The notes below the pieces were generated by a model. That model was not told the DNA's origin and ran no database searches. It saw only the letters and a list, made by a program, of their open reading frames with translations. From Thermoanaerobaculia bacterium (GTDB lineage Bacteria > Acidobacteriota > Thermoanaerobaculia > Multivoradales > UBA5704), in contig JBDSHF010000538.1 in the NCBI GenBank assembly GCA_039918595.1, positions 1,641-65,640 of the forward strand: DNA of 64,000 nt, in the 5' to 3' direction. Both the position numbers and the translations under genes were made by a program. Below are positions 41,301 through 44,300 of this stretch, piece after piece. Position 1 is the stretch's first letter. Each line of letters begins with the position of its first letter.

Positions 41301-44300
41301 GCTCGATCTGGAGCGCGGCGCGCACCCGCGACATCAGCTGCGTCGCGAGGAGCGAGTGGCCGCCGAGATCGAAGAAGCTCACGTCGACCCCCACCACCGG
41401 CAGCTCGAGGACCTCGCACCAGATCGCGGCCAGGACCTCCTCGAACGGGGTACGCGCCGGTGCAAGCTCCGCGCGGGCGGCGGCGCTCTCCGGCGCCGGC
41501 AACGCCGCCCGGTCCACCTTGCCGTTGCGGTTCAACGGCAGCTTCTCCAGCAGCGTCAGGCTGGCCGGCACCATCGGCTCCGGCAGCCGGCGGCGCAGCA
41601 GGTCGCGCAGCTCGGCGGCGGTCAGCTCCCGCGGCACCTCCACGGCCTGGCGCGGACCTCGCCCGCGCTCCCGGCGCGCGATCCCCTGGCGCACGGCATA
41701 GAGGTTGTGGCGGTCGGTGCCGTGCAGGAGCTCGTCCTGCTCGGCCACCGCGTCGAAGCCGCGGTCGGCGAGCAGCGCCAGGATCTCCGGCACTCTCCCC
41801 TCGCTCTCGTCGCCGGGAGCGTCGTGCACCTCCATGACGACCTGGTCGATGCGCTCCCAGTCCGCGTCGTCGATGCCGCGCAGGACGTCGAGCTCCGCCC
41901 GCTGCACGTCCACCTTGAGCAGGTCGATCCGCTCGATCCCGGTCTCGCGCAGAACGTCGGAGAGCCGGCGCAGGCGGGCCTCGATCATCCGCCCCTCGAA
42001 ACGGCCGGCGAGGAGCGCCTCGGCCTCCTCGATCAGGACCGAGGCCTCCGCCGACCCGGCCGCGCGCTGGTTCTCCAGATAGCGCTTGACGACCTCGACC
42101 TCGGAGTCGGGGCGGGCGTAGAGGCTCTGGCCCGACATCATGGTGTAGCGGGGGTAGAACGTGAACCGCTCGACGCGCTCGCCGTCCGACAGGCCGAAGG
42201 GGAAGAGGCGGGTCCCGGGCGCGTAGAGATCGCAGTTGATCCGCAGCACCTCGAAGATCGGCTCCAGCGGCTCGAAGGCGAAGACCCGCGGCCGGGCGCA
42301 CTCCTGGTGCGCGAAGAGGGTGAACATGCCGATGTTCGCCCCGACGTCGAAGATGCAGGCGTCGTCGGGCAGCTCGACGCCGTGCCGCACGTAGCAGCGC
42401 TCGTCGAAGATCTCGCGGTAGAGGTAATCGGTCTCGTTGCGGTTCTGCTCGACGACCGACATCCGGTTCGGCAGCTCGTGGCGCGGCCGGCCGTCGACCT
42501 GCGCGGCGTAGCGATGCCGCGGCACCACGTAGGCCGCCAGCCGCACGTCGCCAGGCCCCTCTTCGCGCACCGCCACCACCGCCTCCGCGACCCCCGGATG
42601 CTCACACAGCACCGCCTCGATCTCCTCGAGCTCGATGCGGTAGCCTCGCACCTTGACCTGGAGGTCGATGCGGCCGAGGAACTCGAGGGTGCCGTCGGGC
42701 CGGTGGCGTACCTTGTCGCCGGTGCGGTAGAGGCGCTCGCCGCCGCCGCGGAAGGGGTTGGGGATGAACTTCGCGGCGGTGAGGTCCGGGCGGTTCAGGT
42801 AACCGCGGGCGACGCCGGCGCCGCCGAGGACCAGCTCGCCAGGCATGCCCGGGGGGACCGGCTGCAGCCGGTCGTCGAGGACGTAGGCCTCGACGTTGGC
42901 GAGCGGACCGCCGATCGTGGGCGCCGGGCCGGCGACCCGGCAGGCCGTGGCGTCGACCGTGCACTCGGTCGGGCCGTAGACGTTCCAGAATGCGATCGAA
43001 TCGCAGGCGGCCAGGCGATCCCACAGGCCGGCGTCGATCGCCTCGCCGCCGATGAGCACCAGCCGTAGAGGGAGATCCCGGCGCTCCAGAAGCCCCGCCG
43101 CCAGCAGCAGGCGGAGCTGCGACGGCGTGCAGTCGAGCACCTCGACGCGCTGCCGCTCGAGGAAGGCGAGCAGCGCCTCGCCGTCGGCGCGGACCTCGTC
43201 CGGCACCGGGTGGAGCGACCGGCCGAGGAGCAGCTGGATCACCTGTTTGATCGCGGCGTCGAAGGCGAGCGGCGCGTTGACGCTCACCCGCAGCCCTGGC
43301 GCCTGGCCGGCGTAGACCGCGGCGTCGAGCGCGGCCGCCAGATTCGCCGCCCCGCGGTGCCGGAGCATGGTCCCCTTCGGCCGGCCGGTCGAGCCCGAGG
43401 TGAAGATCATGTAGGCCAGCGCCTCCGGATCGACCTCAACGCTCGGTCCGGCGGCGCTCTCGGCCGCGATGGCCGCCGCGGTCTCCGCGTCGTCGAGGAC
43501 GACGACCGGCAGGCCGGTCGCGGGGAGCAGCGGCACCATGCGGCGGTGGGCGAGGATGACGGGGTCGCCGGCGGCGCGCACCTCGTCCAGCATGAGGGCG
43601 AGGCGCTCCTGGGGCTGCAGCGGGTCCAGCGGCACGAAGACCGCCCCCGCCTTGAGCGCGCCGACGACGGCGACGACGAGGTCGGCCGAGCGCTCGAGCG
43701 CCAGCACCACCGGGATCTCCGGCACGACGCCGAGCTTCTGGAGATGGCGCGCCAGGCGCTGCGCCCGCGCCTCCAGCTCGGCGAAGGTCAACTCCTCGCC
43801 GCCGGCGGAAACGGCCAGCGCGTCCGGCGTCAGCCGCCCCTGGGCCTCGAACAGCCGGTGCAGCGGTTGCCCGGCAGGGAACCCGGCCGCCCGTCCGTTC
43901 CACTCCACCAGGAGCCGCTGCCGCGCCGGCGCGCCCAGGATCTCGAGATCGCCCACCGCTGTCGGCGGCGCGGCCACGGCGCTGCGCAGCAGGGTCTCCA
44001 GCTCCTCCGCCAGGCGCTCGATCCCCTCGCCATCCCACCGGGCGGCGTCGTAGCGCAGCTCGAGGTCGAGGGTGCCGGCGCGCACGACCGCGAGCTCGAG
44101 CTGGAAGCGTTCGAGACAGGCGCTCTCGGCCGCCACCGAGAAGCGCGGCGCGCCACCGTCCGGGAGGCCGGCCGCGCGCTCCTCGAAGGCGAAGGACAAC
44201 GGCCAGTAGGCCGCCCTGTCGCCCGGCTCAGCCCGGCGCCAGGAGAAGTACTCCTCCCACGCCTCACTCTCCTCGACCGCCCCGGAGACCTCGCGGAGCA

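Follow-up and report, generated by a model that had tools for sequence, protein, structure and literature searches.

Four adenylation (A) domains in one nonribosomal peptide synthetase (NRPS) gene cluster of a Thermoanaerobaculia bacterium (phylum Acidobacteriota) are interrupted by a methyltransferase (MT) domain of the FkbM family, and all four MT copies read DVQRAE where Glu-Gly was expected in place of Gln-Arg. This raises the question of whether the altered motif marks decayed enzymes or a particular kind of active enzyme and, in the latter case, what these domains methylate. The window analysed is a stretch of 64,000 nucleotides (assembly GCA_039918595.1, contig JBDSHF010000538.1, positions 1,641 to 65,640 of the forward strand), which lies on contig C538 of a genome of 5.99 Mb in 541 contigs and is one nonribosomal lipopeptide gene cluster with a G+C content of about 72% and every gene on the minus strand. 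We conclude that the QR pair is not a defect and is a hallmark of those members of an embedded MT clade that reside in A domains for acidic amino acids. Each of the four units is probably an AmbE-type module, composed of a condensation (C)-like domain without the catalytic His, an A domain for Glu whose A8-A9 loop holds an FkbM-like type II O-MT acting on the side chain, and a carrier (T) domain, and its residue is likely to be a hydroxy-methoxy-glutamate.

The spacing between the A8 and A10 core motifs is about 384 amino acids (aa) in the first A domain of the synthetase proteins P1, P3, P2 and P4, and about 90 aa in the nine A domains of the window that have no insert. With the R-L-x-A-Y-x-x-P strand as left boundary and the helix that precedes LPxxM(V/I)P as right boundary, the insert is 298-302 aa long in all four copies. 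The initial annotation, made by a model from the sequence without database searches, had given about 270 aa; its coordinates fall within the ranges found here, and only its length was too short. The PF05050 profile (Methyltransf_21, FkbM), which that annotation had proposed as a check, matches all four inserts at 55-73 bits when whole proteins and excised inserts are scanned by hmmscan, and at 60.7-74.8 bits in a six-frame search of the genome, against a gathering cut-off of 22.7 bits. The Stachelhaus code extracted by hand from all four host A domains is DAKDLGVVDK, which we take to be the canonical Glu code of the Stachelhaus tables, and the placement of an FkbM-family MT between A8 and A9 of all four Glu-type A domains is thereby borne out. 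The inserts share 55-72% protein identity with one another, and such a four-copy pattern is far beyond chance. In an alignment of the window copies with orthologues from amb clusters, DVGANIG, AFEP, FT(F/Y)YP, KxDxxRAE and EVH are invariant.

FkbM itself is the 31-O-methyltransferase of FK506/FK520. For stand-alone members of its family we used 27 proteins from 61 genomes of the same phylum, two of them encoded in the same genome as the window, on contig C139, and read the motif from an alignment of full domains. The pair at the two variable positions is EG in 19 of the 27 proteins, QG in six and DG in two. The general motif KxDxEGxE, which the initial annotation had given for the family, therefore holds for stand-alone members, with an invariant Gly, and the window inserts have K-V/I-D-V-Q-R-A-E instead. 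Since Gly is invariant while E and Q already vary in the stand-alone proteins, the real departure of the window motif is, as judged from these sequences, the change from G to R. The inserts share with stand-alone FkbM proteins a match to PF05050 above the cut-off, the D-x-G-x-x-x-G SAM (S-adenosylmethionine) loop, the acidic residue of FEP and the K-x-D-x-x-x-x-E frame, whereas the second variable position, Gly in 27/27 stand-alone proteins, is R, K, Q or N and never G in the embedded members. The two stand-alone genes on contig C139 (12625-13128 and 19447-19920; L004 and L006) have the canonical EG motif, and therefore both motif states are present within one organism.

A HMMER scan of 1.84 billion cluster representatives gave 1751 clusters (50% identity) at E<=1e-30, nearly all of which are large NRPS proteins matched near residue ~900, with Acidobacteriota, Myxococcota and Actinomycetota predominating. 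In the best 150 cluster representatives, the 152 motif hits comprise 114 QR, 18 EK, 13 ER, 4 QQ, 2 EN and 1 QK, and xG never occurs. When this sample was enlarged by two word-indexed searches to 303 proteins with 269 MT-A pairs, QR was found in 231 of the 269 pairs and a motif glycine in none. The A domains that host QR-type MTs have Glu-like codes (DxKDLG...) in 207 of the 231 cases and Asp/Asn-like codes (DLTK...) in 18, and where the code is Ser-like the pair is E-K/R/N (8/8). The claim that the QR state is fixed and not sporadic was right, for the four copies and for most embedded relatives alike; the significance attached to an "altered" motif was not, because DVQRAE is the commonest state of the embedded clade. 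The association of QR with acidic codes is a lead and not a statistic, and the link of this pair to acidic-substrate A domains appears to be the small new point concerning the MT domain. DVQRAE is thus no sign of decay and can be used as a sequence signature (Q-R for Glu or Asp/Asn A domains, E-K/R/N for Ser-type and other codes), which can sharpen the product prediction for uncharacterised NRPS modules throughout the 1751 clusters.

Maximum-likelihood analysis of 95 MT domains places all embedded MTs in a single clade (support 98/94) on a long branch (1.63), separate from the stand-alone FkbM proteins. Within it, the basal position is taken by ER types, whose codes are Ser or other; QR types occupy a broad middle part, and a derived subclade consists of the EK/EN types. 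A subclade of its own (99/97) unites AmbE with the other MTs linked to C_modAA, the dehydrating C domain of AmbE. The window copies form two pairs, P3 with P2 (100/93) and P1 with P4, among QR/Glu modules that are followed by a C domain of the LCL type.

The initial annotation had named AmbE as the enzyme to compare with, and this was the right choice. The MT domain of AmbE is reported to be catalytically active and to O-methylate Glu after C3/C4 hydroxylation by AmbC and AmbD (PMC8968710, citing Patteson et al. 2018), and SAM-dependent conversion to the mass of AMB, the trans isomer of L-2-amino-4-methoxy-3-butenoic acid, with mass shifts, has also been reported (PMC4357302). The AmbE of P. 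aeruginosa, found by a homologue search seeded with the P. mangiferae orthologue, is a protein of 2125 aa (P0254, from a cluster of 8946 member sequences) and contains the sequence of PDB entry 7R9X; no match to AmbE was obtained in the control genomes of the genome search. This protein has the identical motifs DVGANIG and KIDVQRAE at residues 950 and 1092, and over the MT region its identity with the window insert is 48%. Because AmbE, reported to be active, has DVQRAE letter for letter, this motif is compatible with activity. The initial annotation had itself stated that the deviation would be uninformative if DVQRAE were common among active members of the family, and AmbE is such a member. 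Further amb-type loci were fetched with the C_modAA sequence of AmbE in 7R9X, read from an alignment, and were found in two other Pseudomonas (L007, L008) and three Micromonospora (L009, L013, L014); P. aeruginosa was not among the matches of this single scan. All five have the gene order A-T-C, TauD, TauD, Cn-A(MT)-T-C_modAA, where Cn is an N-terminal C-like domain, and all five have DVGANIG together with LLKIDVQRAE.

AmbE and the window units have in common the N-terminal C-like domain, a Glu-activating A domain, an FkbM-like MT with DVGANIG and KxDVQRAE between A8 and A9, and a carrier domain, and in both cases genes for two TauD-type oxygenases accompany them. The AmbB|AmbE junction (...T-C, then Cn-A(MT)-T) is also the same as the protein junctions of the window, with the preceding protein ending in a C domain. 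They differ in that C_modAA and T2-TE are found only in AmbE, whereas an ordinary LCL-type C domain follows in the window, and in the A code, which is DAKDLGVVD in the window and a DSK...LVN variant in AmbE. No C_modAA was detected among the window C domains, the best of which scores 83 bits against the 7R9X fragment, compared with 140-345 bits for true C_modAA domains elsewhere. The second carrier and the dipeptide/tripeptide-releasing thioesterase (TE) of the AmbE type are not present in the window units, which stand in line. Among the relatives, a QR-type MT followed by an LCL-type C domain is as frequent as one followed by C_modAA. The AmbE toolkit is therefore used far beyond free AMB and often without the dehydrating C_modAA, which points to an unexplored family of acidic residues, both oxygenated and O-methylated, in the lipopeptides that uncultured soil bacteria make.

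The insert can also be compared with the type II M domains of the survey by Lundy, Mori & Garneau-Tsodikova in 2020, which covers the family 2a interrupted A domains, such as KtzH A4 of kutzneride and ColG of columbamide (PMC8341866). Type II M domains are 290±13 aa long and lie between a8 and a9, and their representatives KtzH and ColG O-methylate Ser (PMC8341866, Table 1). Their motifs i-iii are EIFxxxxYxxxG, (V/I)(F/I/V)DVGx(N/H)xG(L/M)F(S/T)L and EPxP(E/P)xxxxx(R/A/E)xN, and motifs iv-vi are FT(Y/F)YPxx(S/T)x(L/M)SG, (I/V)DLLKxD(V/A)ExxE and WxxIxQxxxEVH (PMC8341866). The window inserts have counterparts of all six, namely EIFDERCYVRHG, IFDVGANIGMFTL, EPLEPIFEVLRIN, FTFYPRYTMMSG, IDLLKVDVQRAE and WERIDQVVMEVH; motifs i, ii, iv and vi match, as does most of iii and v, and only motif v differs clearly, with Q for E, where (I/V)DLLKxD(V/A)ExxE stands against ...DVQRAE. 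The insertion point is likewise the same, after L(V/A/I)(A/G)(Y/F)xxP, the left boundaries in the window being RLAAYVVP, RLIAYVTP, RLVAYVLP and RLVAYLVP, and the lengths agree. The host A domain, on the other hand, is Ser/Thr-type in KtzH and ColG and Glu-type in the window. Because the published type II M domains share the motifs of the insert, its lineage was already recognised, and the initial annotation was only partly right in assigning the usual NRPS-embedded MTs to a different lineage. Since AmbE, Glu and FkbM are not mentioned in the 2020 survey (PMC8341866), the Glu-type members are an uncatalogued but biochemically known subgroup. The MT insert itself is nothing new in kind: it is a type II / FkbM-like embedded O-MT of the AmbE subtype.

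The fold predicted for the P3 insert by AlphaFold2 from a 10-sequence alignment (pLDDT 82.7, pTM 0.85) shows the Rossmann-like alternation of strands and helices of class I MTs, which accompanies the glycine-rich motif I and the acidic residue after beta-2 (AFEP). In Foldseek the top PDB matches are all generic class I SAM-MTs (probability 1.00, target TM 0.56-0.69), and a sequence search of the insert against PDB chains gave nothing at E<=1, with no close solved homologue. The predicted model has a two-helix insertion at residues 144-177, which distinguishes it from stand-alone FkbM proteins. QR corresponds to model residues 213-214, between the central beta strand (207-210) and the helix 216-221. 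It would thus occupy the motif IV position of class I MTs, beside the methyl donor, and the Arg would probably contact the side-chain carboxylate of the substrate.

The cluster encodes two Fe(II)/2-oxoglutarate oxygenases, which appear to be orthologues of AmbC and AmbD. TauD2 is 51% identical to the AmbD-position gene and belongs to the AmbD clade (99/97), and TauD1 is 45% identical to the AmbC-position gene of the Pseudomonas amb clusters, with a weaker placement on the AmbC side (88/89 only). As first delimited (449 aa, start at 23662), the open reading frame of TauD2 shares ~275 nucleotides with the 3' end of P3, and its homology begins only at aa ~108. The true start is likely to be the ATG at 23362, which lies just past the P3 stop codon (23386-23388), has GAGAGGA in front of it and gives a protein of 349 aa, similar in size to TauD1. 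In the homologues P0233, P0256 and P0257, a TauD domain (PF02668) is fused in the same polypeptide to an A(FkbM-MT) module, a fusion that supports the view that hydroxylase and MT are functionally coupled.

The Cn domains of the window units occupy the same position as the N-terminal domain of AmbE and read SALVADP, LPLWGDP, PVLLADS and SSLSADE where an active C domain has HHxxxDG. Every protein that opens with Cn follows a protein ending in a normal C domain, so that a C|Cn tandem is formed at each junction, as at AmbB|AmbE. PDB matches of Cn include the glycopeptide X-domain (4TX2) as well as ordinary C domains; by analogy with the X-domain, a role of Cn in recruiting the oxygenases is conceivable. 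In L020 and L032 (Thermoanaerobaculia, Holophagales), Cn-A-T without an MT insert adjoins modules containing C_modAA, the A domains being closely related to the Glu A domain of the window, against which they score 316 and 426 bits; Cn can therefore occur independently of the MT insert.

On this basis we propose the following course for each AmbE-type unit. The A domain would load L-Glu, as its code suggests, on the carrier, and the tethered Glu would be hydroxylated by the two TauD-type oxygenases, at C3 and C4 if they act like AmbC and AmbD, to which they appear orthologous. The embedded MT would then transfer the methyl group of SAM to a new hydroxyl beside the side-chain carboxylate, as in AmbE, and the residue would be built into the lipopeptide by two C domains, the one that ends the protein before and the ordinary LCL-type one that follows the carrier. 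Because there is no C_modAA domain, the dehydration and decarboxylation of AMB formation are probably absent; hence the residue would be a hydroxy-/methoxy-glutamate, most likely hydroxy-methoxy-glutamate, rather than methoxyvinylglycine. A literature search for methoxy-glutamate returned glucosinolate papers only, and we did not find such a residue described in any nonribosomal peptide; a search combining FkbM MT, NRPS, TauD and glutamate gave nothing relevant. In our view, the more interesting biology of this locus is that a 14-module acidobacterial lipopeptide line contains four AmbE-like units, none of them with C_modAA.

Several observations weigh against this proposal. The window MTs lie outside the subclade of AmbE and the C_modAA-linked MTs in the tree, and the regiochemistry and number of hydroxylations are transferred from AmbC and AmbD at 43-51% identity, with the lower support for TauD1 noted above. 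It could also be module 9, which has no complete A domain, that the TauD enzymes serve, either in place of the MT units or in addition to them, as KtzO/P do in kutzneride. The sample behind the correlation of QR with acidic codes was picked by likeness to QR-type queries, and this correlation is therefore biased and phylogenetically non-independent. Finally, the ratio of nonsynonymous to synonymous substitution rates (dN/dS) between the four copies, 0.33-0.60, indicates only moderate constraint; dS is likely to be depressed by the G+C bias at third codon positions (GC3), and given this bias and the divergence of the copies the ratio is not decisive.

A further possibility is AMB-type chemistry in line, in which the His-less Cn or the downstream C domain replaces C_modAA and the units become methoxyvinylglycine (vinyl ether) residues. 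The window contains the rest of the AMB toolkit, with a Glu-type A domain, an MT, Cn and oxygenases resembling AmbC and AmbD; no role is assigned even in AmbE to the N-terminal C-like domain of ~460 aa (PMC4357302); and the C domains after the MT modules have HHxxxDAWS instead of HHxxxDG. However, DAWS is also found in the second C domain of P4, which follows a module without MT, and no window C domain exceeds 83 bits against 7R9X. The equal frequency of the two types of C domain after QR-type MTs and the separate subclade of AmbE-type MTs suggest two distinct outcomes, and we regard in-line AMB chemistry as unlikely here.

It has also to be considered that the MT forms a methyl ester on the gamma-carboxylate of Glu, hydroxylated or not, for example for charge masking or side-chain activation. 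QR-type MTs are found almost only with acidic codes, both Glu-like and Asp/Asn-like, and an active-site Arg would suit the binding of a carboxylate. Against this, the characterised homologue AmbE is reported to give a methyl ether (PMC8968710), KtzH and ColG O-methylate a hydroxyl (PMC8341866), and two dedicated hydroxylases are encoded in the cluster, which makes ester formation very unlikely. That the inserts are catalytically dead relics, mere spacers in the A domain, could be argued from the replacement of the canonical E-G and from dN/dS values that are not very low, but is hardly credible, since the same residues are found in active AmbE, no change is seen across phyla in the SAM loop, in the acidic residue that follows beta-2 or in the other motifs, the clade numbers 1751 clusters, and the fold is predicted with confidence.

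For the hydroxy-methoxy-glutamate proposal, a broader and more speculative extension may be offered tentatively. QR might retarget the type II embedded O-MTs from Ser/Thr hydroxyls to a hydroxyl beside a side-chain carboxylate, and would then define an uncatalogued "acidic-substrate" subclass predictable from sequence, with four hydroxy-methoxy-glutamates, or in-line methoxyvinylglycine warheads, in a halogenated acidobacterial lipopeptide.

Table 1. Positions of the MT inserts, their motifs and the other features of the cluster in the 64,000-nucleotide window.
Feature	Position	Strand	Evidence or remark
MT insert of P3, aa 906-1203	41626-42519	-	PF05050, 72.7 bits, E 5e-20; copy named in the initial annotation
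MT insert of P1, aa 898-1196	47097-47993	-	PF05050
MT insert of P2, aa 890-1191	18707-19612	-	PF05050
MT insert of P4, aa 905-1203	13227-14123	-	PF05050, six-frame genome search
DVGANIG (SAM-binding motif I) of P3, aa 963-969	42328-42348	-	
KVDVQRAE of P3, aa 1107-1114	41893-41916	-	Q1111 and R1112 in place of family E and G
A8 core motif of the interrupted P3 A domain	42631-42675	-	GRIDLQVKVRGYRIE
A9 (LPEPMVP) and A10 (NGKVD) of P3	41512-41586	-	A domain resumes past the insert
DVGANIG of P1 insert	47802-47822	-	
KVDVQRAE of P1 insert	47364-47387	-	
DVGANIG of P2 insert	19424-19444	-	
KVDVQRAE of P2 insert	18989-19012	-	
DVGANIG of P4 insert	13932-13952	-	
KIDVQRAE of P4 insert	13503-13526	-	
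TauD1, Fe(II)/2-oxoglutarate oxygenase, 350 aa	50703-51752	-	PF02668, E 5e-49
TauD2, Fe(II)/2-oxoglutarate oxygenase, AmbD clade	22316-23362	-	PF02668, E 2e-48
Cn of P1	49365-50684	-	without HHxxxDG, reads SALVADP
Cn opening P3	43912-45222	-	
Cn opening P2	21002-22267	-	
Cn opening P4	15489-16811	-	
Trp halogenase, flavin-dependent	61691-63367	-	PF04820, E 3e-162; opens the cluster
P5: FAAL-(T)-C-A-T-C-A-T-C	51752-61651	-	domain mapping
P1: Cn-A(MT)-T-C, 1816 aa	45237-50684	-	phmmer/Pfam domain mapping
P3: Cn-A(MT)-T-[C-A-T]x4-E-C-A*(remnant)-T-C, 7282 aa	23389-45234	-	domain mapping
P2: Cn-A(MT)-T-C, 1815 aa	16835-22279	-	phmmer/Pfam domain mapping
P4: Cn-A(MT)-T-[C-A-T]x3-TE, 4815 aa	2391-16835	-	domain mapping
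MacB/FtsX-type permease (exporter)	1-2391	-	downstream of the P4 TE

Domains were mapped by phmmer, with queries cut from the window itself, and by Pfam (Table 1). The genes follow one another in the order Trp halogenase, P5, TauD1, P1, P3, TauD2, P2, P4 and MacB/FtsX-type exporter, and the MT unit is present four times within a line of 14 modules whose sole TE is at the end of P4. Upstream of the halogenase the G+C content falls to 57%, and this stretch is likely to be the cluster boundary and promoter region.

In module 9 (P3 aa 6549-6649, ~25287-25587, minus strand) the A domain is reduced to a C-terminal remnant of ~100 aa (C-A*-T), and therefore loading in trans is required, possibly by one of the Glu A domains. 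By analogy with KtzH/KtzN/KtzO/P of kutzneride, the TauD enzymes might also act at this module. Modules 2 and 3 of P4 (5079-8264 and 8265-11444, minus strand) are adjacent C-A-T modules of ~3.2 kb, both with the code DMFNNGLTFK, and their identity of 83% at the protein and 85% at the DNA level looks like the result of a fairly recent tandem module duplication.

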